Counted from the first letter of the stretch, positions 1 through 36,109 are shown. The stretch: 56,504 bases of DNA from an uncultured Actinomycetes bacterium (GCA_963824995.1 CAWGRK010000016.1:62001-118504), one strand, 5' to 3'. Notes: generated from the letters alone by a model not told the origin. Program-made: numbers and translations.

Positions 1-174
1 GCCTTCTTCATCGTCACCAACTTCTCGAACCTCCGCGTGGTGATAGGCACCGGCCTGTGGTGGATGACACTGGGCCTGATCGCCTCGGTGCTCGAGCGCT
101 ACCGCAAGGATGAACTTCCTGGGCAGGAGGGCCAGAACTCAGTTCCGGCTGACGCTGGCCGGGTGACGCCATGA
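1..174 (+). CDS. 3' end of a membrane protein, probably O-antigen ligase/polymerase (Wzy-like); truncated by window start
   Basis: Frame 1 is open from base 1 (AFFIVTNFSNLRVVIGTGLWWMTLGLIASVLERY...) to TGA 172-174, which overlaps the next ATG (ATGA). Hydrophobic C-terminal helix; product call rests on the glycan-locus context. Confidence 0.5.
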   Translation, partial: AFFIVTNFSNLRVVIGTGLWWMTLGLIASVLERYRKDELPGQEGQNSVPADAGRVTP

Positions 175-1145
175 GCCCTGCGATCGAGCAGAAGTGGGTG
201 TCCTGGCTCGACTCGGATGCCTGGCGCAGCTTCGGTAGGTCGAGCATCGGCGCCACCATCTTCGAAAGCCGTGTTTATCGTGCCGCAGACACGGCCCGCC
301 GTTACGTGCGGGCCGGTCTGAGCACGCTGCGGCATCCCGACCTGTTCTCCGGGGTCGAGACCTTTTGTGCCTTCATTGGGCACGTGAAAAGCGGAGGGAC
401 CTTGCTGGGCACGCTACTCGACGCCCACCCCCGGGCCCTCGTCGCCGATGAGGCCGACGCCTTCCGCTACGTCGCAGCCGGGTTCGGCCGCGACCAACTC
501 TTCCACCTGCTCCTCAAGGGGTCACGCCGCGAGGCGCTGAAGGGTCGCGTGACCGCCCGCCGCCTCGGGGCCTACGACTTCGCCGTTCCTGGGCAGTGGC
601 AGGGGCGGGCCACCCGGGCGCAGGTGATCGGCGATTCACGGGCAAGTCCAACGACGCGACTTCTGGGCCGCCGTCCAGAACTGTTGGACCGATTGCGGTC
701 GGTCCTGGGCAGTGTCGAGGACCGCTACGTCCATGTGGTTCGCAATCCCTTCGACCCCATCAGCGCCATGGTGATGCGAGGCCGGCGGAGCATCGAGGAT
801 GCCACCGCTGACTACGCCGCACAGTGCGCCCGTCTTCTCGACCTGCGGAGCATCCTCCCAAGCGGTCGGGTCCTCACGGTGAGGTACGAGGAATTCACCG
901 AGCAGCCGAAGGCTGGGCTGGCTCGCGCGTGCGGGTTTCTCGGTCTCGACCCGGTGCCGGATTACTTGGATTCATGCGCCGCCATCGTGCAGCCGGGACA
1001 GCAACGGGAACGGGGTGCCGTCGACTGGACCCCGGCCGCGGTCGACGCGGTTGAGGGGCTGATCGAGACGGTGCCCTTCCTCGCCGGCTACGCCTACGAA
1101 GCGCCTGCGCCAGGAGCTAAGACCGACGACGGGAGGAGGCGGTGA
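171..1145 (+). CDS. Sulfotransferase family protein
   Basis: 5'-PSB-like FIGHVKSGGTLLGTLLDAHP, 3'-PB-like HVVRNPFD, and VRYEEF motif. Confidence 0.8.
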   Translation: MSPAIEQKWVSWLDSDAWRSFGRSSIGATIFESRVYRAADTARRYVRAGLSTLRHPDLFSGVETFCAFIGHVKSGGTLLGTLLDAHPRALVADEADAFRYVAAGFGRDQLFHLLLKGSRREALKGRVTARRLGAYDFAVPGQWQGRATRAQVIGDSRASPTTRLLGRRPELLDRLRSVLGSVEDRYVHVVRNPFDPISAMVMRGRRSIEDATADYAAQCARLLDLRSILPSGRVLTVRYEEFTEQPKAGLARACGFLGLDPVPDYLDSCAAIVQPGQQRERGAVDWTPAAVDAVEGLIETVPFLAGYAYEAPAPGAKTDDGRRR

Positions 1146-1921
1146 CGATCATCGAGTTGGCCGGCGCCCCCGGTGCCGGCAAGACCACCATGGTGCCCGA
1201 GGTGCAGGAGGCCTGCCGGGTCGCCGAGCTCACCCCCTACACGACGGTGGAGGCCGCTCGCCCCTTTGCGGCGCGAACCCTGCTCGGCCGGACGGTGGCC
1301 ATTCTCCCGAAAGAGGCACGGCGCGCTGCATTATGGGGAGTGTTCCGTCTCTACTCGGCGGGACACTCGGTCCGCTTCGTACTGCAACGCCGCAGCCTGG
1401 CGTCGCTGGTTTTTCGCAGCCAGCTCCGTCGCCCGGCCGAGTCAGACTCCCGGCGGCGTCGGGTTCTCTACTGGTGGTACCGCATGGCCGGGGCCCATCA
1501 GTTCGTCCAGGCGCATGGGAAGTCCGGGGAGGCGCTGATTCTGGACGAGGGTTTCGTCCACCGCGCTGTGCAGATCTTCGCCTCGGCCGTAGAGCGCCCC
1601 GAGGCGGCGGCGGTGGCCGCCTATGTTGACCTGGTCCCTCCGCCCGATCTGCTGATCCACGTCGCCGCACCCGCCGACGTGTGCCGGCACCGGGTGCGCG
1701 GGCGCGGCGTCTGGTCGAGGCTGCAGCACCGCCGTCCCGCTGAGATCGACCGGTTCGTCGAAAATGCTCACCACACGGTCGAGCTTGCCGTGGCAGCAGC
1801 GCGCAGCAGGGGCTGGCAGGTGATAGAGGTCGCCAACGGGGACCTCGATTCCGCCTCGGCGGCGGCTGAGCTCCGGTGCCGACTGGCGGGCGACGTGCTC
1901 ATCGGGGCCGCCCGTGCTTGA
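1142..1921 (+). CDS. P-loop kinase (thymidylate/nucleoside-monophosphate kinase-like)
   Basis: N-terminal Walker A IELAGAPGAGKTT, ILDEG, PPPDLLIHV; GTGA coupling to upstream gene. Confidence 0.7.
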   Translation: MTIIELAGAPGAGKTTMVPEVQEACRVAELTPYTTVEAARPFAARTLLGRTVAILPKEARRAALWGVFRLYSAGHSVRFVLQRRSLASLVFRSQLRRPAESDSRRRRVLYWWYRMAGAHQFVQAHGKSGEALILDEGFVHRAVQIFASAVERPEAAAVAAYVDLVPPPDLLIHVAAPADVCRHRVRGRGVWSRLQHRRPAEIDRFVENAHHTVELAVAAARSRGWQVIEVANGDLDSASAAAELRCRLAGDVLIGAARA

Positions 1922-2987
1922 CACTCGGCTCCCACCGCTGAGTATCCCCAAGCCGGGGCGGGTACTCGGCTCCATACAGGCGCGGTGGCGTCCGGCGGTT
2001 CTGAGCGAGGGTCTGGTCGCCGAGGTCCTCTCCGCCTACGGGCTCACTGCGTCACGACCGGCACGCAACCTGCCCTTCGGCGCCCGCAATGTTCACGTCC
2101 GCGTGGCCACGCCGGAAGGACGGAAGGTGTTGAAGCAGTACCGGGGGCCCTGGACATCGTCCAACGTCGCCTACGAGCACTCCGTGCTGCACTGGCTGGA
2201 GGAGGTCAGCTTCCCGGCCGTCCGGGTCAACCACACTCTCACCGGAGACACCCTGATCCGGTGCGACGGACGACTTTACGCCCTGTTCGAGTACGAGTCG
2301 GGCACCAGCCAGAGCTCTCGCCTCATGCCATACGGCCCCCGACTCCGGCTGCTGGGCCGAGCGGGGAGTGCCCTGGGAGAGCTGCACCGAAGCCTCTCCG
2401 GTTTCATCCCCCAAGCCGTGCACCACCTCGGCTTCCGCTCGGACACACTCGAGCAGGCACACGACCTCGAGTGGTACCGACAGGCTCTGATCCGACTGCG
2501 CTCGGGAGCGGACCCGGTGCCGCCGCAGCAGGCCGACGATGCTCGGCAACTGCGCGACCGCTCGGACACTGCAGAGGAGCGGATCGCCCAACTCAGCGCG
2601 GTCCTTGATCAAGCCGACCTCCCACGGGTGGTGATCCACGGCGACTTTGGGATCCACAACCTCGCCTTCCGCCGGGACGGCACGGTCGTGGTGTTCGACT
2701 TCGAGCTGGCCCGCTTGGAGTGGCGGCTGGTCGATCTGGTCATCGTGCTCTCCCGGGCGCTCCCGGAGTCGCGGCGCGCCTTTCTTCACGGATATCGCCA
2801 AGTCAACGAGATCACACCAGCCGAGTGGGGCCACCTCCCCGAGGTCTGGGAGTTCTACAAGCTCACCGGGGCCGTCCGATCGTGGTGCACTTTCCTCGAG
2901 GGGGGCATCGGTGACCGGATAAGCCAGGCACGACGCCGCCTGGACGAAGCGGACGTAATCCGCAACGAGGGGCTGGCTCCATGGTGA
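1914..2987 (+). CDS. APH/homoserine kinase type II-like phosphotransferase
   Basis: VLKQY lysine, Brenner motif IHGDFGIHN, and VFDFE. Confidence 0.8.
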   Translation: MLDTRLPPLSIPKPGRVLGSIQARWRPAVLSEGLVAEVLSAYGLTASRPARNLPFGARNVHVRVATPEGRKVLKQYRGPWTSSNVAYEHSVLHWLEEVSFPAVRVNHTLTGDTLIRCDGRLYALFEYESGTSQSSRLMPYGPRLRLLGRAGSALGELHRSLSGFIPQAVHHLGFRSDTLEQAHDLEWYRQALIRLRSGADPVPPQQADDARQLRDRSDTAEERIAQLSAVLDQADLPRVVIHGDFGIHNLAFRRDGTVVVFDFELARLEWRLVDLVIVLSRALPESRRAFLHGYRQVNEITPAEWGHLPEVWEFYKLTGAVRSWCTFLEGGIGDRISQARRRLDEADVIRNEGLAPW

Positions 2988-4178
2988 GGACCCCCCCACG
3001 CGTTGTGATGGTGGTGCGGCTATACCACCCCTGGGTTGGCGGCACTGAGCGCCAGGCACACAAGCTCTCCAAGCAACTCCTGGCCCGGGGATGCCGCCTC
3101 GAGGTTGTCACCGGCTGGTGGTTTCGCGGGACCAGGCAACGGGAGGTCATCGACACCGTTCCTGTGTTCCGCAACCAGACGCTGTGGGAGTTCTTCGGGA
3201 TCAGGGGACTCCGCAAGTTCGGGGGATACCTCTATATCCTCACCCTGCTCTGGTACCTGTGGCGTCGCCGGGCCCACTACGACGTGATCCATGTCCATGG
3301 GCTCAACTACCACACGTTCGCCGCATCCATCGCCGGCAGGCGACTCGGAAAGCGCACCATCGTCAAGCTGGCCAACAGCGGCCCGGCGAGCGACATCGTC
3401 AAGATGCGGGAAGATCGCCAGCTGGCACTGGCTCGGTTCATGCTGCCCCGGGCGCTGCAGTGCGACCTGTTCGTCGCCCTCAACGAAAAAGTGGTAGCGG
3501 AGTTGCGCGAGGCCGGTGTGACCCCTGATCGGATTGTGGAGATGGCCAACGGTGTCGAAACCGAGCAGATCACGTCCCGGACCGACTACCGGCTCGGGGA
3601 GCCGCCAGGTATCACCTATGTCGGGCGGCTTCACGAGCAGAAGGATCTGGGCACGCTGTTGCAGGCGGTCTCCAGGCTGCTCCCGGCATGGCCCGGGCTC
3701 CGGCTCCGCCTGATCGGAGACGGCCCCGAGCGGTCGCACCTAGCCGGACTTGCCGATCAGATCGGGCTGTCCTCACAGGTCGATTTCATCGGCACGGTCG
3801 CCGACACCAAACCGTGGCTGGCAACCAGCGATGTCCTCGTCCTGCCCTCTCTGGCGGAGGGGCTGTCCAACGCCCTGCTCGAGGCGATGGCCGCCGGTCT
3901 GCCGGTCGTTGCCTCCGACATACCCGGGGAACGCCAGGTTGGTCGAGGACGGTGTGAACGGGATGCTGTTCCCTCCCGGCGACGATGAAACGCTCGCCGC
4001 CGCCATCGGACGGCTCGTCGAGGACGAGGATGAGCGCCGCCGGATGGGACAGGCGGCGCGCCAGACCGTGGTCGAGAGCTACGGGCTCGACCGGGTAGCT
4101 GAGCGGTACCTCGAGTTGTACGCCGAAATGACCGGGACGACCCACGCGGAATTCGCTGGCGGGGTGGTGGCAGGGTGA
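2981..4178 (+). CDS. Glycosyltransferase family 4 (one frameshift near 3930)
   Basis: GGTERQ N-terminus, YVGRLHEQK, EGLSNALLEAMAAGLPVV. C-terminus (LVEDGVNGMLFPPGD...YLELY) continues in ORF 3750..4178. Confidence 0.9.
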
Positions 4179-5165
4179 CGGATGTGAAGCCGGGCCCGAT
4201 TCTCGTCACCGGCGCCGACCGGAGTGGGACCACCCTCCTCTATGCCGCTGCTCGCCTCGCACCCCGACGTGTCGATGGTGCGCCGGACCAACATGTTCCG
4301 CTGGTTCTACGGAGGGTTCGGCGACCTGGCGGATCCGTCGAATCTGGAGAGTTGCCTCGACACCATGCTCCGCTACCGCAGGCTCGACCAGCTTTCCCCG
4401 GACCGGGAGAGGATCCTTGCCGAGTTCGGGGAAGGGGAGCCGAGCTACGGCCGGCTCTTCACCCTGTTCCACCAGCACGAAGCCGAGCGGCGCGGGAAAG
4501 GCCGGTGGGGTGACAAGTCACTCCACACCGAGCATCACGCAGACGAGGTCTTCGCCGAGCTTCCCGAGGCGACGATGGTCCACATCGTGCGCGACCCGCG
4601 CGACCGCTACGCCTCGGTGGTCCGGCGCTACGACGGTGAGCCAAAAGGGATCGGCGCCGCCACCGCCAGGTGGATCAGGTCCACCAAGGCAGGTCAACGC
4701 AACTCGAGGCGGTACCAGGACCGCTACTTGATGGTGCGATACGAGGACCTCGCCCGTGATCCCGAGCAGACCCTTCACTCGGTGTGCCGACACGTGGGAG
4801 TCACTTACGACCCGGTCATGCTTGGGATGCGGGGGGCGCCCGAAGAGGCAGACTCTGGTGGCAACAGCTCGTTCGGAGATATTCAGCCGGGAACCATCTC
4901 CACCCGCGCCATAGGCCGATTCCGCAGCGTTCTCCCGCCCCGTGACATCGCCTTCATCCAGGCCTCCGCAGGCCGCCTGATGAGTGCCGCCGGCTACGAG
5001 AAGGAACCCGTCCACCTCTCTCCCGGCGAGAGAGCAGCCTTTCTGGCTGTTGATCTCCCTGTCAGATCTGCCCGTCTTGCCGGATGGCTCACCATGCAGA
5101 GACTGCAGGAGCACCGGGGTAGGACGGCCCCTCCGCAGCGGTTGTCGGCGGGCGTGAGCCCATGA
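4175..5165 (+). CDS. Sulfotransferase (frameshift near 4245)
   Basis: ILVTGADRSGTTLLY in ORF 4175 joins LLASHP...RWGDKS...HIVRDPRD...VRYEDL in ORF 4224. Confidence 0.85.
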
Positions 5166-7263
5166 GGACGAACGGCCGAGTGTCCTCCTGGGTTGTGATG
5201 GTCACAGCTCTAACCGCGGTCTCGGCATGCGCCGACCCGGCGGTTACCGCCGCGCCGGCGCCAGTGGTGAGCGAGACGAGCCAGGCGACTTCGCCGCCGG
5301 CTACGCCAGGCGGTGCTGAAGTGGTCCCACAGGCCTGCGAGCGCTTCGTGGCGCCCGATGGAAGCGACGGAGGCCCTGGTAGTGCCGGTGATCCGTGGGC
5401 GACTCTGGCACACGCCGCGGCTGCGGTCCCCGACAACGGCTGTGTGGTCTGGTTCGAGCCTGGTGTATACGTCGGCTACCAACAGGTGGAGCGCCGGTTC
5501 AGCAAACCGACCACGTTCCGTGCGATCACCCGCTACCGGACGGTGCTGGAGAACGACGGCACCGTGCTCGATGTCGACGGCGCCAAGAACGTCGTTTTCC
5601 GCGGCTTCGAGTTCCGACACTCTGATGCCGGCGCCGATGGCTACGTAGTCATCGTGGACCAGAGTGACGACATTTGGGCCGAAGACGTGACGTTCCGGGA
5701 CAACATCTTCCACGACTCGTTCGACAACGACTTGCTCAAGATCCACAACGGAGTGCGCCGTGCCCTGGTCGACGGAAATGTCTTCTACAACCAGGGGACC
5801 AGCGAGCAGCACATAGACGTCAACAGCGTCACCGACGTCATCATCCAGGACAACGTCTTCTTCAACGACTTCGCCGCCAGCGGCCGGGAGGTGTCCACCG
5901 AGACCAAGCACTACATCGTCGTCAAGGACAGCAACGAGGACGAGGACGGCCAGCTTGGGAGCGAGCGGATCGCAATAAGACGCAACGTCTTCCTCAACTG
6001 GCAGGGCGGCTCGGAGAACTTCGTCAAGATCGGGAACGACGGCAAGGCATACCACGAGGCGAAGGACGTCACCGTCGAGAACAACCTGATGGTCGGCAAC
6101 TCCAGCCGGCCGATGGACGTGGCCTTCGGGGTGAGCGGTGCCCGCGATGTCTCCTTCGTCAACAACACGGTCATCGGGGACCTGCCGTCGGATGCCTATG
6201 GCTTCCGGGCCGACATCAAAGGCGACAACCCGCAAAACCAACGGATCGATTTCGTCAACAACATCTGGGCCGATCCCACCGGCACGATGGGAGAAGAGTT
6301 CTCCGAAGGGGACCCCGACGACACCACAGAACTCGTCCTCGACAACAACCTCTACTGGAACGCAGGGGCGGCCATCCCGCCCGGTGAGGCGGCCAGCCCG
6401 CTGACCGACGACGCCAATCGGTTGGTGGCCAACCCCCGGCTCCCCACCGACCACCAGGGTGTGGTGCTCCCCGTCTGGGACGGGACGGAGTTCGTCAATG
6501 GCGCGGCCACCATCCGCGACGAATTCGTCCGGCTGGTGACGACCTACGGCCGAACTCGCCGAGAGCAGCCCGGCTATCGACGGCGCCGACCCAACTGTTG
6601 CGCCCGACGATGACATCCTGGGGAACAACCGAACTTCCCCCGATCTGGGAGCGTACGAGTTCGGGGCCACAGGCGGCCTTCCCCCTGGTGGCACCTTCAT
6701 CGATGACGACGGGCAACGTCCACGAGGGATACATCGAAGCCATTGCAGCCCGCGGGATCACCCGGGGGTGCAACCCGCCGGCCAATGACCGGTACTGCCC
6801 GAGCCAACCGGTGACCCGGGGACAGATGGCTGCCTTCCTGGTACGAGCCCTCGACTTGCCGGCGGGTGATATCGACAGCTTCGTGGACGACGAGGGCTCG
6901 ATCTTCGAGGACGACATCAACCGTTTGGCTGCTGCCGGGATCACTCGCGGCTGCAATCCACCCGAGGCGGATCAATTCTGTCCGTTGGACTCGGTCACTC
7001 GTGGCCAGATGGCCGCATTCCTGGTTCGTGCATACGGCTATCCGAGGACCGAAGTTGACAGCTTCACCGATGACGACACCTCGGTTTTCGAGGACGACAT
7101 CAACCGACTGGCCTCTGCCGGGATCACGCGAGGGTGCACCGACGACTGGTATTGCCCCACCGCGGAAGTGCGCCGTGACCAAATGGCGAGCTTCCTGGGT
7201 AGGGCCGAAGAACTTACGCCGATTCTCGCGCCACTTGTCGCCATGGGGTGGAGGCTGCAATGA
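5162..7263 (+). CDS. Secreted lipoprotein: right-handed beta-helix (pectin lyase-like) domain plus three C-terminal SLH-like repeats (frameshifts near 6553 and 6713)
   Basis: Signal peptide with lipobox-like LTAVSA-C; FVAPDGSD...GSAGDPWATL; many NNxF/NNTV beta-helix repeats. A bridging frame reads SPAIDG...PDLGAYEF...GGTFIDDDG into three F.DD...E..I..LA.GIT.GC...TRGQMA.FL.RA repeats. Confidence 0.75.
6690..7210 (+). repeat. Three tandem SLH-like domain repeats
   Basis: Repeated DNA such as ttcgaggacgacatcaaccg (near 6904 and 7088) and repeated GIT.GC / RGQMAAFLVRA peptides. Confidence 0.8.
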
Positions 7264-9551: not shown

Positions 9552-9553
9552 GC

Positions 9554-10872: not shown

Positions 10873-10886
10873 CGGGAGTGGGATCG

Positions 10887-12080: not shown

Positions 12081-12144
12081 TGGTGCTTCCAGTCACGGGC
12101 GCCGTTGTCCCGGCGTCCAGCACGGCCGACTCGCCCAGACGCTG

Positions 12145-15243: not shown

Positions 15244-15290
15244 ACCTGTTAGCCCACCCCGGCGGGGCCAAGGCGCGCCGCGGTGCGCGG

Positions 15291-26500: not shown

Positions 26501-26513
26501 CTCCTGACCCCTC

Positions 26514-29500
26514 TCAGGTTCTACGGCGGCGCCGTTGCGCCTGCTGTGCTGCGTACTGGCGACGCCGCTCCGACGCCACGGGCCTGTTCTTTTCCATTAG
26601 GTAGCCGAGTTCGGCAGCAAGTCGACGGGTGGGTTCGCCCAGTGAAACGGGCCCCATTTCCACCTTCCAGCGGCTTGCCACCGATGGATCGATTTGGCGG
26701 TGCTCGAGGAATCGTGTGTCTCCCATGGGCGTGGAAATCCGGTGAATCCCGTCGACCATCTTCCGGTCCAGGTCGTCATAGGGTCGAACGAGACCCTCAT
26801 GGAACGGAAGGTCGAGGGCGTCGGAGAGCTGCTCCATCACCCGGCGCGGCTCGGTGACCAAATCCTCGAAACGGACACGGTGCTTGCCGCTCTGCCGGAA
26901 CCTCGTCGAGAAACTCGATGATGTTGCGATGGCTGAGCAGCCAGACCAGCTCACCGAGTTGTGCCGATGAGAATCGGTGTTCCCTGAGATAGAGCACCTG
27001 ATCCATGTGCATGCTCTCGAAGGAGCGCACCATCTCGCTCGGGTCGCGGATGAGATGGATGTATATGGGTTGATCGAAGCCTCGCTCGGCGTTGAGGAGC
27101 GCGCCGGGGTCGAGGGTATAGGCGGGGGTCTTGTCGACCAGGATCCGCGTGCCAACCCATTCCTGCAGCTGGGCGTAGAACTGCTTGGTAGATAGGTCTG
27201 CCGTCCTCGGCATCGGAGATGATCCGCTTGGCTCGGTCGGCATCGACACCTTCCAACTCCATTACCGCCCTAACGGAGCCTTCGAGCCAAAGGCCGAATT
27301 TCCCAACGAACGCATCACGCCGCTGGCGCATCGTGTCGAAGCCCAGTAGTTGAAGCTCGGATGCAGCGAATAGCGCCGGGTGACCTGCCAGCATCACCCG
27401 GAGTAGAGAAGTGCCTGACCGGGGGGGCGACAGCACGAAGACGGCAGGGGGATTGGCCGGTGTCGCGGTCCAGGAATCGGGCCGGGCGAAGGTGGGGACG
27501 AGGCCTCGCATCTCTTCCAGAGCCGCTTCGTCAATCACCGATTGAGCCTGGGCGAGACCCCCGGACTTGGTCCGTTGGCGCTGGCCGTCGTTCGGCGAAG
27601 TTCCAGCCGAGGCGCCTCCTGGGGCTTCTGACCCGAAACGCTGACCAATCGAGCCGCCATAGTCCCGCCGCAGCAGAGCGGCGTACTCGGCAACCGTCGG
27701 CGACTGGAAGACGGTGATCACGAAGATGAACTCGCCCAGCTCAGCGTGAAGCCTGTTGACCATCTCGGCGGCTAGCAAAGAGTCGCCGCCGAGATCGAAG
27801 AACCTGTCGTGGATCCCCACCTCGTCGAGGTTGAGCATGCCCTTCCAGAGGTCGACGAGATAGCGCTCGAGTTCATCGCGCGGTGGTGCGTACTCGGTGT
27901 CGAGCTCGGGCCGGGCGTAGGTGTGCACCACCAGGCTGCGCCGATCGACCTTTTCGCTCGTGGTGAGCTGGAAGGCGTCGTGCAGCACGAAGATGCTCGG
28001 CACCATGTACTCGGGGAGCTTGGTCTCGAGAAAGGCCCTTAGCTTCGCCCCCGAGGGCCGCCCTCCGGTCGGTACTACGTGTCCCACCAGACGCCGGTGC
28101 TCGCCGTCATCGTCGACGATCACTGCGGCGTGGCGTATCTCGGGGTGCTGGAGCAGCGCCGCTTCGATTTCGCCGAGTTCGATCCGATAACCCCGCACCT
28201 TGACCTGGAAGTCGGAGCGGCCGAGGAACTCGAGCGCGCCGTTCGGTAGGCGGCGCGCCAGGTCGCCGGTGTTGTAGATGCGGGCTCCCGGCTTGTTGTC
28301 GAATGGGTCGGCAATGAATCGATCGGCGGTCAACTCGGGACGGTTCAGGTAGCCGTTCGCCACCTGTACCCCACCGATGTGGAGCTCGCCTACGACTCCG
28401 ACTGGGACAGGCTGCAAGCGTTCGTCGAGGATATGGATCCGCGTGTTGGCCATCGGATAGCCGATTGGCACAATATCGAGGTCCTCGTCGCGCCGGCACA
28501 TCCAGCAGGTCACGTAGACGGCAGCCTCTGTCGGCCCGTAGAGGTTCTGCAGGTCGATGTCGAAAAGCTCGAAGAAACGGTTCTGGAGGTCGAGCGTCAT
28601 GGTCTCGCCGGCAACCAGGAAGCGTCGCAGGCTGACGCATTCCTCGACCCTGGGCAGGTCGAGGAATGACCGCAACGCGGAGGGTACGAACTCGATCGTG
28701 GTGATGCCATGGTCGATGATCATTCTGCGGACCTCGGCAACGTCTCGGTGGCTTCTGGGCGGGGCAACCACGAGCTGGGCGCCGGCGAGAAGCGGCCAGA
28801 AGAACTCGCTCACCGAGACATCAAAGGTGAACGGTGTCTTCTGAAGTACGTGGTCCGAATCGTCTAGCCCGAAGGTCCTCTGCATCCAAAGCAATAGGTT
28901 GCAGATTCCGCGGTGGGTGTTCATCACGCCCTTGGGCATCCCGGTCGACCCCGAGGTGTAGATCACGTAGGCGATGTCGTCTCCGTGAGTCACCACCGGC
29001 AGATTTCCGTCAGGTTGGTCGACCGCAGACCCCACTTCGGGATCGACCACGACGATGCGGGCGTCGCTCTCCGGGAGTGTCGCCAAGACCTTCTCCTGGG
29101 TGAGCACGACCGGCATCTGCGTCTCGTTGATCATGAATTGAATCCGCTCCGCCGGATATTCGGGCTCGAGTGGGATGTAGGCGGCGCCCGCCTTGAGCAC
29201 CGCCAGAAGCGCCACGACCATCTCGATCGATCGCTCCATGTACACGCCGACGAGGGTGTCTCCTCCCGCACCCCATTGCACGAGCTGCCGAGCGAGCCGG
29301 TTCGCACGCCGGTTGAGCTCACCGAAAGTGAGAGTCGTCTCGCCGAAGACCAGTGCGACCGCGTCTGGCGACCGCTCGACCTGTGCCTCGACGAGACCGT
29401 GCAGCGTCGCTGACGAAGGCAGATCGACGTCGGTGTCGTTCAACTGGTTCAGCTCGGCGACCTCCGCGGGTGTGAGCATCGGAAGAGTCCCCAAGGTCGC

Positions 29501-30166
29501 GTCGGTGTCGGAGAGGAACCCGTCGAGCATGACCTCAACGTGTCCCAGTATTCGGCGCACCGTGCTCGGCTCAAAGAGATCGGTGTCGTATGTCAGCGCC
29601 AGGGTGAGGTCGATGCCTGAGCCTTGGACGACAAAGACGAGCTCGGCTCCGGGCAACGCGAGCCAGTCTGTTTCCGGCGCACCATTTCTATCGGATCCCG
29701 CCCCACCATCGACCAGGACGCACCGCGCTGCAGCTGTCTGAACCTCCGACTCGTCGACGCCGAATCGTTCCGCGACAACTGAGAGGTACCGTTCCGGATC
29801 GGCCATGGAAACGGCGAACTCGGCGATCACCCGCCCGATCCATCGCGGGGGGGTCGGCTCGTCATCCCAAGACAACGCCAAAGGTACAACCTGAGCGGCG
29901 CGGTCGGCAGAGGCGGCGTAGCCCAACAAGAGCTCCGGCTGGCGTCCGTATCTAGCAACCACTGCGGCAAAGGCGGCAAGGCACCAGAGGCGAGGTGTTG
30001 CCTCGCTGGCTGCCGCCATGGACACAAGGCGTTCGGTCAACTCGGCGTCGAGAAGGTGACGCTCGGTGGCCCGCTGCAAAGCGCGTCCGGGAACCCGCGG
30101 GTGATCGAGCGGGAGACCGAGTGTGGGAAGATCCGACCGCTCGGAGACGGACGCGGCCGCCTTCAT
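26514..30166 (-). CDS. NRPS initiation protein: partial C domain-A-PCP-sulfotransferase (frameshifts near 27205 and 26885)
   Basis: A YTSGSTGMPKG, YGPTE, YNTGD; PCP FFDLGGDSLLA; ST VFVLSPPRSGTSLLRVMLAGHP, then LVDKTPAY and YIHLIRDP (ORF 26797) and RVRFEDLV (ORF 26514). Confidence 0.88.
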
Positions 30167-30251
30167 GGGCCGGGCGGCCTCAAGCTCCCCCTCGAGTTCG
30201 TCGTCGCGTCACCATCAGGCTGGGCGGCGGCTCTTCCCGATGTGTAAGCAC

Positions 30252-30295
30252 ATGACCCCACCATCACTCCCATATGGCCCCACCATGACCCCCAT
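30252..30295. repeat. Four tandem 11-bp units (two 22-bp units, 19/22 identical) upstream of the NRPS operon; possible regulator site
   Basis: ATGACCCCACC ATCACTCCCAT ATGGCCCCACC ATGACCCCCAT read directly. Confidence 0.6.
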
Positions 30296-30344
30296 AGGGA
30301 AGTTCTATCGGCTCCGGTGATGTCGCGCTGAAGGGGTAATCGGA

Positions 30345-31915
30345 CTATCGGGATTTTTTACGTCGCCGTCCGAGCCTCCCCGCTCGCCGCATCAACCTGT
30401 CGATCACCAACCGGTCTTCGGGTGCCAGTCCGAAGACGAGTAGCAGGCCCCCGTAAAGCGCCAGCACGAGCACAGCCTGGACCACCACGACGGCGAACGA
30501 GTCGTCGAATGGAAGGTAGGCCAGCATCGCCAGTCCGCCCGCATAGGCGGCGACAGCGGCAACTACCGGCTTCCAGAAGCTCTTGTCGTAGGGGATCAGG
30601 CCCTCGAGTACCCAGACCTCGATCAGCCGTGCGAGGTTCACCGCCGCCGAGGCGATCAGCGATGCAACCGCAGCGCCGAGTAACACCCCATCTCGGGATG
30701 AGCAGGGCGTTGCTCGCCAGGAGGAGCGAGATCCAAAGCACTGAATTCACCAACTTGGCGCGGGTGTGGCCGGTCATGTCGATCACGGACCCACAGGTCC
30801 CGGTGCCGGCGATCACCAACTCGGCGAATGCGAATACGACCAGTGCGCCGGCGCCTGTCGGTGAACGACTTTCCGAAGATCCCCAGCAGGGCCTCCGGGT
30901 AGAGCACGATCACGAGGAAGAACGGCAAGTTGAGCGATAGCGTCCACCGGGTGGTCGCCGTGTAGAGGTGGGCCAAACCCGCTCGGTCCTGCTGGTCGTG
31001 GAGCCTGGCGAGCACCGGTTTGACCGAGACGATGATCGAGCGGTAGACGGTGTGTCCCACTAGGTTCACCCGGTCGACGATCGACAGGATCCCGACGTTC
31101 GCCACCGTGCTGAGTGCACCGAGCATCACCGCCTCGATGTTCCGGCGGAACTGGCTCAAGAGTCCGCTCAGCCACAGCGGCAAGGCGAAGGAGAAGATCG
31201 GCCGGAACTCGCGTCTCGCCTCGCGAATCTGAACCCGGCGAAGCGGGAGATGGCGGTTGAGCAGGAGGATCAGCGTGATAGTCGCCGCCACGTCGGCGAT
31301 TCCGAAGACGATCACTGCGGTGAGGGGTTCGAGTCCTATGAAGAAGAGCACCCCGAGGAGCGCCATCCGAACCACGGATTGGACGACGTTCTCGGCAAAG
31401 GTGGCGAAGTCCATGCGCCCGAACCCGCGGGCACAGCCGAGGAGAACGTTGCTCACGCAGAGGAATGGAACGATGACCGCCATGACCTCGAGCAACGGTT
31501 CCAGCCGAGGCTCGTCGAAAAGGCCGTTGGCGATCGGTCCGGCCAGGAAATAGAGGGCGACGCCGATCAAGATGCCGCTCGCCGTGGATACCGCCAGGCC
31601 TATTTGGATCGTTCCCCACACGCCACGCTCGTCTTTGCGGCTCGAGAGGATGGCCACATAGCGGACCATGGCGTCGTCCAAGCCGAGCAGAGATACGCCC
31701 GTGAAGAGGGCGGCGGCGCTAACGGCCAGGTTGTAGAGCCCGTAGCCATCAGCACCCAGTGCCCGTGCCAGCAAGAAGGCGATGACGAACCGGCTGACCA
31801 GTTCGACGACGCTCCCGCCGGCAATGAAGCCGCCACCCTTGGCGGTAGCGATGATGTTCGCCTCCGATGGACCGGACTTGGCCGAACCGAGGGCGCCTTC
31901 GTCGGTAGCGCTCAT
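30345..31915 (-). CDS. Wzx-like oligosaccharide flippase (frameshifts near 30850 and 30680)
   Basis: Polytopic; LARALGADGYGLYNLA, LGLDDAMVRY, FSFALPL, YPEALLGIFG, MTGHT, LIPRWG..GAA.A. Confidence 0.9.
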
Positions 31916-32082
31916 CGCTACATATGTCGGTCGGGTACTGCTATCAACTGGAGCCGAGGTCCGGAAGCCGACGGATCATGAAGAGCGAAAGTCATGAGGA
32001 GGATCGGCCGATGATATGTTCCCGGCCCCGGAGCTTCCGGTCCGTCGGAGTACGGGAGTGGGGAGAGAGAGATCGGCAGGTT

Positions 32083-32688
32083 GTGATCCCTGGTGTCTGT
32101 ATCTGGTTGACCGGCCGTAGTGGGGCAGGTAAGTCGACGGTGACCGCAGCGTTGATCCCGATGCTCGAGGGCCTCGGGCGCACTGTGAGCGTGTACGACG
32201 TGGTGCCGCTGCTGGCGAAGCGATGGTTCGAGCGGACCAGCGAAGGCAAGCTGCTTCGCAAAGCCTACGTTGCCGGCGAAGTAGCTCGGCACGGCGGCAT
32301 CGCCATTTGCGTAACCGTCAGCGCCAGGGCGGAGATAAGGGAAAAGGCGCGAGCAATCGTCGGGTCCGACCGCTTCCTCGAGGTCTATGTCGATGTCCCA
32401 CCGGACGTCAGCGCTGCCCGGCGGTCGCAGCGCACCAAGAAGCCCCCACTCCTCAAGCGCATCAGACGATCGGTGCGCGCGTTGAGAGGTGGTGAGTCGG
32501 GCTATCAGGTCCCGTCGCACCCTGATTTGACCATCGACACGGTGACGCTGGCACCAGAGGAAAACGCCCGAGCTCTCATGCGCCTTCTCATCGAACGCGG
32601 CTTCGTTGAGCCATCCGCGCCGACGAGGAGCGGACTCGCTCCACACCACGACGAACGCGGCAAGCGCGCTGCCACTGCCGAGTCGTGA
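32083..32688 (+). CDS. cysC: Adenylyl-sulfate (APS) kinase-like, divergent
   Basis: GVCIWLTGRSGAGKSTV, GEVARHGGIAI, FLEVYVD, YQVPSHPDLTIDT. GTG 32083 chosen as start because the longer ORF from 31924 has a non-homologous N-terminus. Confidence 0.7.
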   Translation: MIPGVCIWLTGRSGAGKSTVTAALIPMLEGLGRTVSVYDVVPLLAKRWFERTSEGKLLRKAYVAGEVARHGGIAICVTVSARAEIREKARAIVGSDRFLEVYVDVPPDVSAARRSQRTKKPPLLKRIRRSVRALRGGESGYQVPSHPDLTIDTVTLAPEENARALMRLLIERGFVEPSAPTRSGLAPHHDERGKRAATAES

Positions 32689-33602
32689 CCGACAGCCCCT
32701 TCTTCCTCGCCGGCGTGGATCGAAGCGGAATCGGGCTGCTTGGCGAGGTCCTCGAGCGGCATCCCAGGCTGGCAGTCTCGAGGCGCACCAACTTCTGGTC
32801 CTTTTACTACCGGCGGTACGGTGACCTCAGCCAAACGGGAAACCTGGAGCGGTGCGTCGATGCCATGCTGCGATACCGGCGTATCCGTGACCTCGGTGTC
32901 GACCGCGACAAGTTGCTCGAGCAGATGCGCCACGGCGAGCCCAGCTACGGTCGGCTCCTCAACGGCCTCGAGGAGCAACACCTGCACCGTCTCGGCAAGA
33001 GCCGATGGGGCGATAAGTCGCTCGGTGCCGAGGGCCACGCCACGGCCATCTTCCGCGAATTCCCCGGGGCGCTGATCGTCCACATGATCCGGGACCCCCG
33101 CGACCGCTACGCCTCGCAGGCGTCACATCGCCGTCCCGCTCGGGGGATGGTCGGGTCAGGGACCGCCCTGTGGCTCTGGTCGACTCGCCTCGCCGAGCAC
33201 AACCAGGCCCGGTTCGGTGAGCGCTACCTCGTGGTCCGCTATGAGGACCTCGTGTCCGGCCCGGAGGCGACCGCCCGTATTGTGACCGGCTTCCTCGGGG
33301 AAGACTTCGACCTCGACATGCTCAGCCTGCCGTCGGGCGCTCTCCACACCACGTCGGTGGGCCGCTTCAGGCATGAACTCGACCGGCGGGAGGTCGCCTT
33401 CGTCGAGTTCGTGGCTCGAGCACCGATGCGACGTATGGGGTACCTCCCGGAGATCGATGGGCTGCTGCCCGCTGAACGCCTCCGGTTCACCCTGATCGAC
33501 CTACCGGTCAACCTGGCCCGACTGGCTGGCTGGTCGGTGGGTCGCGCCGTGAGAGGCCTAATGGCGCCGTCGCCCTCGGAGCGGAGACTGGTCGATGCCT
33601 GA
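32685..33602 (+). CDS. Sulfotransferase, paralog of 4175..5165
   Basis: FLAGVDRSG, RRTNFW, RWGDKS, HMIRDPRD, VRYEDL. Confidence 0.85.
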   Translation: MTDSPFFLAGVDRSGIGLLGEVLERHPRLAVSRRTNFWSFYYRRYGDLSQTGNLERCVDAMLRYRRIRDLGVDRDKLLEQMRHGEPSYGRLLNGLEEQHLHRLGKSRWGDKSLGAEGHATAIFREFPGALIVHMIRDPRDRYASQASHRRPARGMVGSGTALWLWSTRLAEHNQARFGERYLVVRYEDLVSGPEATARIVTGFLGEDFDLDMLSLPSGALHTTSVGRFRHELDRREVAFVEFVARAPMRRMGYLPEIDGLLPAERLRFTLIDLPVNLARLAGWSVGRAVRGLMAPSPSERRLVDA

Positions 33603-35133
33603 CCCGGAGAGCATCCCCCAAGCCGACGCGACCACCACCGAGGGCGAACGGATCGGGATTAGTACCGGTCCAGCCGGCGAATCGCCCCCGGCTGCAGCGC
33701 TGGTCCTCCGCCTCGCCGACCAGCTCGCAGCGGCCGGCGTGAGGTACTGCCACTGGAAGAACACTGCGGAGATCATGCGGTCGTTGTCCGGTGTCAACGA
33801 TCTCGATTTGCTGGTGGCCAGGCGTGACGCCACGCGGTTCGAATCCGTTCTCCACGAGCTCGGGTTCCGTCTCGCCCGGCCGGCGGCCGACCGCCAGGTC
33901 CCGGGCATCCTCGACTTCTACGGGCTGGACGAGGAGTCGGCCCGGCTCATACATGTTCATGCTCACTTCCAAATCGCGGTGGGCGACCGTCTTACTACAA
34001 GCGTGCGACTCCCCCTCGAGGAGGCGTATCTGGATTCGGCAAGTACCGGCGGTGTTCTCCCAGTGCCTAGTCCTGACTTCGAGTACCTGCTCTTCGTGCT
34101 TCGCATGGTGGCGAGGCGCGCCACGTGGGACGCCCAGCTGGGACGCAAAGGTCGGCTCACGGCCTCGGAGCTGGGCGAGATGAGGTACCTGGAGGAGCGG
34201 ATCGACCCGCAAGCGGTCGAGACTCTCCGTGTCACCCATCTGCCGTTCGTCGAGCAGGAACTTTTCGAGGCATGCCGGCAGGCACTCGGGAAAAGGTCAG
34301 GTCGACTGCACCGAGCGAAGACAGCCGGGCGACTCCTGCAACGGCTCGATGCCCAGGCGCGCCGCCCCCGGTCGGCCGATACAGCGGTGAGAATCTGGCG
34401 TCGCCTCTGGCAGCCCTTGCAGCTCCGAGTGCTCCCGTTCACCCAAAGCAGACGGTTCGACAGCGGTGGCCTGGTCATCGGGGTGCTGGGAGGGGACGGC
34501 TCGGGGAAGTCGTCGGCGGTGGCGGCGGTCGGGGACTTCCTCGGGCGCGACTTCGTGCTTCGCCGGTTCCACCTGGGCAAGCCGCCGCGATCGCTACTGA
34601 CCCGCGTCGTCAAGCGGCCCCTACGGAGGCTGCGCGACGAGGGCCGGCTTCAGGCCACGACCCTGCCCGCCTGGACCGAGTTCGACCGATTTCCCGGCTA
34701 CGGGTTCATGCTGTGGCACCTGCTCACTGCCCGCGACCGCCACCGCGAGTACCGACGAGCTCGCCGAGTGGCCGGAGCAGGGGGGATCGCCCTCTGCGAC
34801 CGCTATCCCACCCCGTCGATCAGGCTGATGGACTCGCCCCGCACCACCGACCTACCCGGGATATCGCGCCGACCTCTGGCCCGATGGATGGTCGGACGCG
34901 AGTCGGCCTACTACCGAGAGATCCTCCCTCCCGACCTACTGATCGTGCTCCGGGTGCCACCCGAGGTGGCGGTCGGCCGTCGCCACGACGAGGAGGCGGA
35001 GTTCGTCAGCCGGCGCGCTGCCGAGGTCTTCAGACAGTCGTGGAAGGGAGCGAGCACCGTCGTGGTTGACGCCGGGCGCCCCCACGACAAGGTGCTGGCC
35101 GAGATCAGGGCGGCGGTGTGGGCCGTATTGTGA
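33595..35133 (+). CDS. Nucleotidyltransferase-like plus thymidylate-kinase-like fusion protein
   Basis: N-terminal YCHWK...GVNDLDLLV (Pol-beta-type DxD); C-terminal VLGGDGSGKSS, CDRYP, PPDLLIVL. Confidence 0.65.
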   Translation: MPDPESIPQADATTTEGERIGISTGPAGESPPAAALVLRLADQLAAAGVRYCHWKNTAEIMRSLSGVNDLDLLVARRDATRFESVLHELGFRLARPAADRQVPGILDFYGLDEESARLIHVHAHFQIAVGDRLTTSVRLPLEEAYLDSASTGGVLPVPSPDFEYLLFVLRMVARRATWDAQLGRKGRLTASELGEMRYLEERIDPQAVETLRVTHLPFVEQELFEACRQALGKRSGRLHRAKTAGRLLQRLDAQARRPRSADTAVRIWRRLWQPLQLRVLPFTQSRRFDSGGLVIGVLGGDGSGKSSAVAAVGDFLGRDFVLRRFHLGKPPRSLLTRVVKRPLRRLRDEGRLQATTLPAWTEFDRFPGYGFMLWHLLTARDRHREYRRARRVAGAGGIALCDRYPTPSIRLMDSPRTTDLPGISRRPLARWMVGRESAYYREILPPDLLIVLRVPPEVAVGRRHDEEAEFVSRRAAEVFRQSWKGASTVVVDAGRPHDKVLAEIRAAVWAVL

Positions 35134-35152
35134 GCAAGGAACGAGGAACACG

Positions 35153-36109
35153 ATGCGCGCCCTGATTACCGGAGCCGCCGGTTTCATCGGAAGCCACTTG
35201 GTGGAGGCTCTCGTCTCCGACGGGTGGGACGTGGTCGGGGTCGACTGCCTCACCCCCTACTACGACGTCACCCAGAAGCTGGGAAATGTCGAGGAGTTGA
35301 GGACGTCCGTCGACCTCGAGTTAATCGACGCCGACCTTCGCACGTCTCCGCTCGAGCCCCTTCTCGACGGCGTTGACGCCGTCTTCCACCAGGCTGGACA
35401 GCCCGGTGTGCGCGCCTCCTGGGACGACTTCGAGTCCTATGTCGAGCACAACATCCTGGCGACTCGGCGGCTGCTCGAGGCGGCGCGGGGCACCAACGTG
35501 ACCCGTTTCGTGTACGCGTCGAGCTCTTCGGTGTATGGCGACGCCGTCTCCTATCCGACGCGCGAGGAAACCCTGCCTATGCCGCAGAGCCCGTACGGTG
35601 TGAGCAAGCTCGCCGCCGAACACCTATGCAACGTCTACGCCCGGAACTGGGCGGTGCCGGTGGTGTCGCTTCGCTACTTCACCGTCTTCGGACCGCGTCA
35701 GCGCCCCGACATGGCGACGCATCGCCTGATCCGCGCCGCCTTGGAAGGCGGCTCCTTTCCCATGTATGGGACAGGGGATCAAGTGCGCGACTTCACCTAT
35801 GTCGGCGATGTGGTGGCGGCCAATCTGTCTGCGGCAACCGCCCCGGTCGAACCAGGGGCGGTGCTGAACATCGCCGGAGGCGGCGCCGTCACCTTGGCCG
35901 AGCTCATTGCGGCGGTAGAGCGGATTACGGGTCGTCCTATCGAGTTAGATCGGCGCCCGCCAGAGAAGGGCGATGTGCACCGGACCGGTGGCTCGACCGA
36001 TGCCGCCCGGGCGGCTTTGGGCTGGGCCCCGGCAACCCCGATGGACCTGGGCCTCGAGCTCCAAGTCGAGTGGCATCTGCGGAGGCAGGGGGCGTCACCG
36101 GCGGGCTGA
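35153..36109 (+). CDS. NAD-dependent nucleotide-sugar epimerase/dehydratase (extended SDR)
   Basis: ATG 35153 ITGAAGFIG, HQAGQPGVR, SSSSVYG, YGVSK, RYFTVFGPRQRPDM. Confidence 0.92.
   Translation: MRALITGAAGFIGSHLVEALVSDGWDVVGVDCLTPYYDVTQKLGNVEELRTSVDLELIDADLRTSPLEPLLDGVDAVFHQAGQPGVRASWDDFESYVEHNILATRRLLEAARGTNVTRFVYASSSSVYGDAVSYPTREETLPMPQSPYGVSKLAAEHLCNVYARNWAVPVVSLRYFTVFGPRQRPDMATHRLIRAALEGGSFPMYGTGDQVRDFTYVGDVVAANLSAATAPVEPGAVLNIAGGGAVTLAELIAAVERITGRPIELDRRPPEKGDVHRTGGSTDAARAALGWAPATPMDLGLELQVEWHLRRQGASPAG

Follow-up and report, generated by a model that had tools for sequence, protein, structure and literature searches.

The decoration of bacterial surface polysaccharides is commonly ascribed to single tailoring enzymes, which add acetyl, pyruvyl, sulfate or amino-acyl groups. 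In the Dlt system, which D-alanylates teichoic acids, a carrier-bound amino acid is moved onto the wall polymer, and the mycobacterial glycopeptidolipid (GPL) loci bring nonribosomal peptide synthetase (NRPS), polyketide synthase (PKS), glycosyltransferase and sulfotransferase genes together in one locus. Here we analyze a stretch of 56,504 nucleotides from an uncultured Actinomycetes bacterium (GCA_963824995.1 CAWGRK010000016.1:62001-118504; the whole stretch is called the window, with positions counted from its first letter, and its source genome and contig are G000:C16), in which a short NRPS-PKS line with an in-line sulfotransferase (ST) domain and its own phosphopantetheinyl transferase (PPTase) stands in the middle of a surface-glycan island. 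Our preferred reading, to which we give a probability of roughly 0.4, is that the product of the line is used covalently by the glycan pathway, as a decoration. The island is not a homologue of the Dlt or GPL gene sets: it has neither MmpL nor fatty-acyl loading, and no Pfam match to MBOAT (DltB) was found in it.

The nearest published pattern is an orphan NRPS/PKS/glycosyltransferase/PPTase cluster of the Roseobacter group, present in 28 of 57 genomes and of unknown product (PMC4337385). Compared by description only, it too is a small hybrid line with its own PPTase that is tied to a glycosyltransferase, while the accessible portion of that report describes no ST domain and no sulfated-glycan island (PMC4337385). 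The XrtA/PEP-CTERM exopolysaccharide (EPS) set (the acyl-CoA ligase TIGR03098, a carrier protein, the hydrolases TIGR03100/TIGR03101 and the FemAB-like TIGR03019) likewise places carrier-protein chemistry in EPS loci; the GNAT-fold proteins of the window resemble TIGR03019, and the cassette of a gammaproteobacterial relative (G041, below) is flanked by two hydrolases and a ligase resembling the set. All of these matches fall below the family cut-offs, however (TIGR03019 at 73 of 260 bits in the window; TIGR03101 at 104 of 203 in G041), and the window has neither the hydrolase pair nor an exosortase. In the literature searches no report united an NRPS with EPS, a sulfotransferase and a flippase, none examined the function of the carrier cassette that goes with exosortases, and none dealt with sulfation of a serine held on a carrier; NRPS ST domains came up, in the accessible parts of the sources, only for sulfated glyceric acid loading (OciA, DysB). 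The statement in the preliminary description that no characterised pathway has this combination survived these searches: all the parts are of known kinds, and it is their combination, together with the Ser-type carrier-ST family, that is uncharacterised.

The preliminary description had also recognized a complete operon of about 15 kb behind a co-oriented flippase gene, and Pfam analysis confirms this arrangement on the minus strand. The order is Wzx, C*-A-T-ST, KS-AT-ACP, AMT-C-A-T, C-T-TE(Cys), PPTase, where C is a condensation domain (C* the truncated one of module 1), A adenylation, T carrier, KS ketosynthase, AT acyltransferase, ACP acyl carrier protein, AMT aminotransferase and TE thioesterase; the line, a three-carrier NRPS-PKS downstream of wzx in the same direction, runs over 14.9 kb from 30166 to 15291. 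Only 178 bp separate wzx from module 1, no terminator-like site was found between the two, and a promoter scan of 29900-32300 found nothing, with a consensus that may not suit the host. The line is the only NRPS of this 2.9-Mb, 85%-complete genome, all five of whose Condensation matches lie in the window.

The loading module (26514-30166, minus strand) consists of the C-terminal half of a C domain, an A domain, a T domain and an ST domain that is complete over three frames, with frameshifts at ~27201 and ~26885. Its truncated C domain lacks HHxxxDG, and the likeness to solved C domains sets in only at around residue 207. A KS-AT-ACP module follows at 23096-26500 (minus; ketoacyl-synt E 1.6e-70, Acyl_transf_1 E 2.1e-50, PP-binding; motifs ATACSTS, GHSLGE and VAAH), the final ~100 residues of whose open reading frame (ORF) look out of frame. 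The AMT-C-A-T stretch (18562-23083, minus), which may form one protein with KS-AT-ACP as in an intact 2586-aa homologue, joins a class-III aminotransferase to C, A and carrier domains and was pieced together from Pfam matches and tblastn with that homologue, across frameshifts at ~22420, ~21520 and ~21000. The KS-AT-ACP, class-III aminotransferase and C domains follow one another as in the KS-AT-ACP-aminotransferase-C modules of MycA/ItuA (iturin) and McyE (microcystin), to which we liken them by domain architecture. That order, seen by Pfam in the window and in the intact 2586-aa homologue at locus L032, predicts a beta-amino acid unit. The known systems start from a fatty acyl or phenylpropanoid unit, whereas the window has an amino-acid starter and a very short line: A1 is an amino-acid A domain with Asp235 kept, not an acyl ligase for a fatty-acyl or aryl starter.

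The termination protein (16010-18565, minus; Condensation E 2.1e-74, PP-binding, Thioesterase; motifs HHIVCDG and GWCLG) is a C-T-TE without an A domain, and its TE nucleophile is a Cys, in GWCLG. The best solved match of the TE is the termination module of AB3403 from Acinetobacter baumannii (PDB 4zxh, E 3.3e-24), with which it has the Cys nucleophile elbow GGWC-x-GG in common (4zxh reads GGWCFGG); AB3403 is C-A-T-TE, in contrast to the A-less module here. The line closes with a 240-aa Sfp/HetI-type PPTase (15291-16013, minus; ACPS E 2.7e-18; HetI model E 5.3e-55, below cut-off). A 280-aa ORF at 15184-16026 was also considered for the PPTase and rejected, its translation being Arg/Pro-rich out-of-frame text. 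Substrate codes, obtained by anchoring on motifs of a reference, are DVSELALVYK for A1, an outlier in the ST family, and DVWEVGHVGK for A2; both have Glu at position 278, as ornithine-type codes do, which is a hint of the substrate and no more.

The in-line ST domain can be assigned with confidence, on sequence grounds, to the CurM/OLS-type "activating" sulfotransferases, since a profile of eight ST domains of its family aligns at full length with the STs of CurM (4gbm, E 1.2e-80) and olefin synthase (OLS; 4gox, E 3.1e-74). The window ST is 47-61% identical to family member P0093 over all three frames, and its PAPS (3'-phosphoadenosine 5'-phosphosulfate)-binding loops are present as PPRSGTSLLR and HLIRDPSEMVRSF, which we take to be the loops named 5'-PSB (PxRSGT) and 3'-PB (R...S). 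At two positions that are invariant in the eight-sequence alignment the window differs, RHPY having become RDPS, which would fit a changed acceptor. In curacin biosynthesis the CurM ST installs a sulfate as leaving group, after which the TE decarboxylates the chain and the sulfate is eliminated. Like the ST of the CurM and OLS ACP-ST-TE arrangements, that of the window directly follows a carrier domain; here, in contrast, the carrier is an A-loaded peptidyl carrier of the first module, a KS module rather than a TE comes after the ST, and an amino-acid side chain is the probable acceptor. The NRPS ST domains of OciA (cyanopeptolin; PMC6520454) and DysB (dysinosin; PMC2533009) are described, in the accessible parts of these sources, as leaving a retained sulfate on glyceric acid. 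They resemble the window in having an ST built into the NRPS loading region and differ in their FkbH-type glyceric-acid loading and retained sulfate, as against A-domain loading in the window, a likeness drawn by description and not by sequence (PMC6520454, PMC2533009).

Around the line lies an island of 50,048 bp (G000:C16:52215-102262), made up of 9,786 bp before the window and window positions 1-40262. Its left end is at G000:C16:52215 and its right end at 40262..40263, synteny with four congeners (G001, G002, G004 and G005) resuming at 40263. A DNA search of five same-genus genomes (72-93% complete) found the left flank, a DUF885 gene, only 2-35 bp from the right flank, the gene at 40219-41157, in these four, and therefore the 50,048 bp are present only in G000; joined flanks were not seen in the fifth, G003, which at 72% completeness is uninformative. 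The right flank is 92-97% identical between the congeners and G000, and the block that the congeners lack comprises the whole glycan locus, the NRPS-PKS and a PKD surface protein. A protein search of the congeners gave Wzx in one of five (weak, at 25% identity), and Acetyltransf_6 and the 512-aa protein described below in none of five. At the island ends we found no tRNA, integrase or direct repeat of at least 10 bp. The line sits mid-island, not at an edge, and the rest of the island is glycan genes throughout. This clean presence or absence of a 50-kb island in near-identical congeners offers a natural comparison for envelope chemistry.

The anatomy of the island was established by Pfam on 43 + 36 candidate ORFs and six follow-up ORFs, with NCBIfam in addition. 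It contains the priming transferase, flippase and polymerase of a Wzx/Wzy locus: a priming glycosyl-phosphate transferase (Bac_transf E 2.3e-55, L017:10460-11299, in the upstream stretch of G000:C16), which reaches 249 bits with TIGR03025, below cut-off because only the C-terminal domain is present; a Wzx-type MOP flippase (30345-31915, minus; Polysacc_synt E 1.1e-28 in a three-frame reading, frameshifts ~30855 and ~30685, stop 30345-30347); and a Wzy polymerase (Wzy_C E 1.2e-18 in a 594-aa ORF, L017:18219-20000). A 679-aa Wzz-like protein matches GNVR (E 9.4e-4) and TIGR01006 (E 2.5e-7) weakly, far below the cut-offs. Besides the priming transferase, the Wzy_C protein and the weak Wzz-like protein, the upstream stretch G000:C16:52460-62000 holds a UDP-GlcNAc-3-dehydrogenase-like oxidoreductase, a DegT-family sugar aminotransferase (E 1.9e-116) and three more sulfotransferases. 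The preliminary description had placed the locus at 1-36109; its account of the gene content there stands, and the true start lies ~9.8 kb upstream of the window.

Four stand-alone sulfotransferases, as originally described, lie within the window on the plus strand: at 171-1145 (Sulfotransfer_3 E 4.5e-14), 4224-5165 (E 1.6e-20) and 32685-33602 (E 3.4e-21), with a fragmented fourth at approximately 13240-13950 (N-terminal match E 0.032 in ORF 12878-13849, C-terminal match at 13839-13940). An APS (adenosine 5'-phosphosulfate) kinase for PAPS supply (31924-32688, plus; APS_kinase E 1.5e-20) accompanies them, and the island total is seven stand-alone sulfotransferases and the APS kinase. The sugar genes comprise an NDP-sugar dehydrogenase, an epimerase, the 3-dehydrogenase/DegT pair and four GT4 glycosyltransferase genes, of which one holds two GT4 units. 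The island is firmly predicted to encode a multiply sulfated, Wzx/Wzy-dependent polysaccharide. WbpA/B/E logic is the model for a dehydrogenase/oxidoreductase/aminotransferase trio, and by analogy with it we infer a repeat unit that would contain a uronic acid and a 3-amino sugar.

Parallels to the line fall into a few close cases and a broad family. In a scan of one genome per species, the single close parallel that includes the ST part was L032, from a gammaproteobacterial metagenome-assembled genome (G041). It has an intact 958-aa A-T-ST protein, the 2586-aa KS-AT-ACP-AMT-C-A-T protein and a stand-alone ST, preceded by an F-A(monooxygenase)-T protein and the two hydrolases. This cassette, 47-61% identical to that of the window, lies deep within a Wzx/Wzy locus, the surrounding 40 kb holding Wzx, Wzy_C, four GT4, Acetyltransf_6, an NDP-sugar dehydrogenase, epimerases, a nucleotidyltransferase, a deacetylase, two AsnB-like amidotransferases and sulfotransferases. 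Within the window's phylum, two of 400 further genomes had the ST type, and within Pseudomonadota, the phylum of G041, three of 400 further ones had it, too few for statistics in either case. Of the former, G148 has T-ST and KS-AT-T-AMT on a 6.9-kb contig; in G155 a fragmented cassette abuts a Bac_transf (priming sugar transferase) gene, with PPTase and GH76 genes beside it and a CapD-like gene and a Wzz/kinase gene 13-16 kb from the cassette. Of the latter, G580 (L198, C6:1-10777) has a stand-alone T-ST (431 aa), TE, PPTase and ST directly after Wza (Poly_export)-Wzc. Within the same order as the window, 40 relatives were searched, including the unpublished genomes G010 and G021, and no match reached the ST part among the matches listed (there were 269 further matches). 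The best same-order match, G016, was rejected as an orthologue, being a C-A-T / KS-AT line among methyltransferase genes.

The ST region of L032 matched 857 proteins at E<=1e-3 among 3295 candidates. Of the matches listed, 120/120 carry Sulfotransfer_3 and PP-binding and 115/120 also AMP-binding, and none bears a name beyond 'adenylation domain-containing protein'; the module-1 protein of the window is 47-54% identical to the listed A-T-ST family proteins. A search with the whole module-1 protein, swamped by multimodular NRPS, gave nothing above 54% identity among the matches listed. In 78/121 family proteins the A-domain code is DVWH-x-SL-[VI]-D, which we take to resemble the Ser code. A metagenome scan with the ST alignment, in which at least 395 of 600 stretches were confirmed, left 80 loci, whose domain order was read by local BLAST, with Pfam run on all 275 ORFs <750 aa. 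The ST occurs there in three settings: A-T-ST with KS-AT-T behind it and, optionally, AMT-C-A-T, in 25/80 loci (AMT in 11 of the 25; L123 has the trailing C-T too, as in the window); inside long multimodular NRPS proteins; and in a terminal C-A-T-ST-TE, the CurM arrangement. A-T-ST followed by KS-AT-ACP(-AMT) is thus a widespread, unnamed family. The carrier-ST didomain on Ser-type modules, frequent in metagenomes, is one for which we found no published chemistry, and it would allow a direct test of whether CurM-type sulfate activation reaches beyond polyketides to peptides.

Several further features of these loci were recorded. L135, L152, L153 and L164 share a separate cluster type, in which a terminal C-A-T-ST-TE protein precedes an HPPD-like dioxygenase, a class I/II aminotransferase and a LarA-like protein; by CurM logic their T-ST-TE on a Ser-type module might yield a C-terminal N-vinyl amide. 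A sub-type in L132, L155, L157, L160 and L172 has C-A-T, serine hydroxymethyltransferase (SHMT), ST-C-A-T, KS-AT-T and two alpha/beta hydrolases, and in L132, L155 and L160 it lies downstream of Wzz, Wzy_C, polysaccharide deacetylase, carbamoyltransferase and DUF3473 genes. The G580 set is preceded by a pectin-acetylesterase-like gene. Beside the ST-bearing multimodular NRPS cluster of G509 lie adjacent ADP-ribosyltransferase (ART/exoenzyme) ORFs (L194:13221-13952 and 14003-14677).

We propose the following route. A1 would load an alpha-amino acid onto its carrier, and the CurM-type ST would sulfonate a hydroxyl of the carrier-bound starter using PAPS. The KS-AT-ACP module would then add a C2 unit, whose beta-keto group the in-line aminotransferase would turn into a beta-amine, and C-A-T would add a second amino acid, with the code DVWEVGHVGK; C-T-TE(Cys), where the last carrier lacks a dedicated A domain, would add to or pass on the chain and release the product. 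This short beta-amino pseudopeptide would be joined to a glycan repeat unit on the cytoplasmic side, which Wzx would then flip, while up to seven sulfotransferases, fed by the APS kinase, would sulfate the glycan. In the simplest case the pseudopeptide would be the N-acyl group on the island's amino sugar; candidate transferases are a FemAB-like GNAT, the terminal C domain and the Cys-TE, and the sulfate might be retained or might serve as leaving group. The wider generalization, that miniature NRPS-PKS lines across phyla install a beta-amino pseudopeptide on lipid-linked repeat units before Wzx flipping, we regard as rather unlikely; at its boldest it would have the CurM-type ST of the loading carrier supply the coupling, loss of sulfate giving an electrophile that is captured by an amine or hydroxyl of the sugar. 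Were decoration by the line correct, cell surfaces would be diversified in a new way, by an assembly line that serves a glycan; its products would be a class of surface chemistry without a characterised example, and orphan 'biosynthetic gene clusters' that genome miners count as antibiotic-like would gain a purpose.

Several lines of evidence favor decoration. Pfam shows no exporter or regulator in the island, and five of the 18 informative A-T-ST metagenome loci have clear glycan neighbors. The line lies mid-island among glycan genes, in an island that is absent as a whole from four of five congeners; it follows wzx by 178 bp with no terminator-like site between; the island's amino sugar, indicated by the GFO/IDH oxidoreductase and the DegT aminotransferase, would need an N-acyl donor; and the cassette is embedded in or adjoins glycan genes in G041, G155 and G580, a pairing in unrelated bacteria from which it follows that the line may decorate a sugar chain. 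A comparison with generic NRPS loci points the same way: with one BLAST panel, glycan neighbors were found at 6/30 ST-family loci and 2/60 generic NRPS loci. This panel, drawn from the glycan proteins of two reference islands only and applied to loci with at least 3 kb of non-NRPS ORFs, serves only as a like-for-like control, and its counts are lower bounds, because it missed Wzy, FemAB and ST genes that Pfam detects.

Other observations weigh against decoration. Among the 18 informative A-T-ST metagenome loci, five have clear glycan neighbors (L105, L106, L108, L109, L113) and three ambiguous ones (L120, L122, L151, the last with an MBOAT gene), while ten have no glycan gene in the DNA examined. 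The preliminary description had named orthologous operons that usually lack glycan genes as something that would speak against its proposal, and these ten loci go part of the way there. L144 is a fully fused A-T-ST-KS-AT-T-AMT-C-A-T-TE among housekeeping, ABC and OEP genes, and the ST-bearing lines of G509 and G633 (Pseudomonadota) sit in ordinary multimodular clusters. The comparison draws on loci that lack phylogenetic independence and on a BLAST panel of low sensitivity. No enzyme that joins peptide to sugar was identified in the island, and the line ends in a TE, as free-metabolite pathways do. The ST, as a CurM/OLS-type installer of a leaving group, need not share the sulfated-product theme of the glycan sulfotransferases; A1 lacks the family's Ser-like code, the ST departs from its family at the two invariant residues noted above, and the substrate codes depend on the reference against which they were read. 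The original proposal of a sulfated amino-acyl or peptidyl unit on a surface glycan is therefore supported in part, by the island position, the wzx link and the parallels elsewhere, and weakened by the ten loci, the TE and the type of ST.

Whether a sulfate remains in the product is a matter of chemistry that fits either fate of the product. We put slightly short of even odds on the ST sulfating the beta-hydroxyl of the carrier-bound unit and the sulfate then leaving, which could give dehydroalanine, a vinyl group or ring closure, or perhaps an electrophile that captures a nucleophile. Arguing for this are the full-length alignment of the ST family with the CurM and OLS STs, the Ser-like code in 78/121 family proteins, which suggests a seryl-S-T substrate, the serine hydroxyl being beta to the thioester, and the T-ST-TE ends of L135, L138, L140, L145, L152, L153, L164, L169, L174 and L176. 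In the window, however, KS and not TE follows the ST, and A1 lacks the Ser-like code. The NRPS ST domains of OciA and DysB, moreover, are held in the accessible parts of their reports to yield a retained sulfate (PMC6520454, PMC2533009).

Nearly as probable as decoration, the two leaving the remainder to other roles, is that the line yields a small metabolite secreted in free form. This would be a short beta-amino pseudopeptide, either sulfated or, after loss of the sulfate, dehydro/vinyl, and the line would lie in the island only because variable polysaccharide islands collect cargo. The TE at the end of the line fits release of a free product, and the line has its own PPTase; the ten informative loci that lack nearby glycan genes are consistent with such a product, as is the occurrence of the same ST family in secondary-metabolite settings (L135, L152, L153, L164; the multimodular clusters of G509 and G633). 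No ABC, MFS or RND exporter and no regulator gave a Pfam match anywhere in the island, in agreement with the preliminary description, which had seen no dedicated exporter or regulator; the Wzx/MOP protein also matches MatE, at E 7.7e-10, and therefore export of a small molecule is possible in principle. Against this, the Wzy pathway requires a flippase, and the island has none besides Wzx; the line is placed mid-island and not at the edge, likewise in G041; and glycan neighbors are enriched relative to generic NRPS loci (6/30 vs 2/60).

The genes of the locus carry about nine frameshifts: two in Wzx, two in module 1, three in AMT-C-A-T, and breaks in the sugar genes. By tblastn with intact homologues, the ST domain is read in three frames and AMT-C-A-T in four stretches; the frameshift sites are not at long homopolymers. 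In the 9.1-kb flank, which is 92-97% identical, private indels whose length is not a multiple of three number 10 in G000, 8 in G004 and 6 in G005, so that the background error in these assemblies runs at roughly one per kb. Independent soil-metagenome contigs have one base fewer at 27201, one fewer at 26886 and two extra at 21527, and so carry indels at 3/5 of the predicted NRPS-PKS frameshift sites; they show no indel near 22420, 21000, 30855 or 30685, where their cover is not established, and contig X3, with eight gapped letters different over 23127-23372, comes from a relative. The catalytic motifs are kept (KS Cys, HGTGT and NIGH; AT GHSLGE; C-domain HHVICDG and HHIVCDG), as are the carrier serines and the PAPS loops of the ST. 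The frameshifts are assembly errors, not decay, and the line is intact. That the NRPS-PKS is a decaying pseudogene array that makes nothing, as about seven frameshifts in 16 kb might suggest, is highly improbable given that breaks are as frequent, or more so, in housekeeping genes outside the island, that independent contigs have indels at three of the five predicted sites, that the catalytic motifs are kept and that RNA-library contigs are at least 99% identical over the line genes, this last being no more than a weak hint, as carried-over DNA could account for it. The share of the sequence in RNA run X6 is small (0.06), and it bears only weakly on expression.

The remaining genes bear out the preliminary inventory around the line (GT4s, NDP-sugar dehydrogenase, epimerase, FemAB/GNAT, SLH, APS kinase), which Pfam confirms. 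All are on the plus strand except the last. Behind the first sulfotransferase come a P-loop AAA_33-like, kinase-like gene (1142-1921; AAA_33 E 2.5e-4, below cut-off), an APH-family, kinase-like phosphotransferase (1914-2987; APH E 3.8e-27) and a GT4 glycosyltransferase (2981-4178; Glyco_trans_1_4 E 2.7e-29) with one frameshift at ~3750-3990 and its C-terminal piece at 3750-4178. Following the second sulfotransferase are a 483-aa protein with a weak beta-helix hint (5162-6613; no Pfam or NCBIfam match at E<=1e-3, frame favored by a third-position GC content (GC3) of 0.87), a small SLH-domain protein (6598-7263; SLH E 1.1e-10) and a 767-aa protein with two GT4 units (7248-9551; Glyco_trans_1_4 E 6.7e-45 in two stretches; NCBIfam EpsE-like, below cut-off). 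ARAGORN called a 92-nt tRNA-Gly at 7893-7984 (minus) inside this double GT4 gene, which we take as a false call. The NDP-sugar 6-dehydrogenase is spread over three frames (9332-10872), the N-terminal, central and C-terminal parts of UDPG_MGDP_dh falling in ORFs 9332-9772, 9732-10553 and 10273-10872, and is followed by a GT4 glycosyltransferase in two pieces (10878-12161; Glyco_trans_4_4 E 1.6e-22, Glycos_transf_1 tail at 11826-12161).

Two GNAT-fold proteins stand before the line: a partial FemAB/Acetyltransf_6 protein (12492-13241; Acetyltransf_6 E 3.9e-16, FemAB E 3.7e-13) and a FemAB-like Acetyltransf_6 protein (14227-15243; Acetyltransf_6 E 3.7e-21; the TIGR03019 match of 73 bits against a cut-off of 260), which is convergent with the PPTase gene. 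On the far side of wzx, beyond the APS kinase and the sulfotransferase at 32685-33602, lie the 512-aa protein (33595-35133), whose NTP_transf_5 (nucleotidyltransferase) likeness is weak (E 1.3e-5, below cut-off) and which matches in none of the five congeners, and an NDP-sugar epimerase/dehydratase (35066-36109; Epimerase E 4.2e-60). The last island gene encodes a large PKD-domain surface protein on the minus strand (36174-40035; K319L-like PKD E 6.5e-46), in two ORFs that are probably one gene; its GC3 is 0.90-0.95 at 37321-38281, compared with 0.7-0.85 for the rest of the window.

More sulfotransferase genes occur elsewhere in the source genome, at G000:C2:173551-192124 and C1:14542-31103, one group adjoining the genome's only ATP sulfurylase, so the organism may make further sulfated products. 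Outside the island, unusual gene fusions join an HxlR HTH to an FAD/BBE oxidase (53976-56165), RibD_C to a nucleotide cyclase domain (42540-43682) and an alpha/beta hydrolase to a nucleotide cyclase domain (L017:5897-7225). A ~33-bp motif beside tRNA-Ser genes (L017:5593-5626; G000:C16:47593-47626) has dozens of 94-100% matches in all five congeners, some of them in tandem (G003:C29:232277-232409), and is probably a small dispersed repeat.

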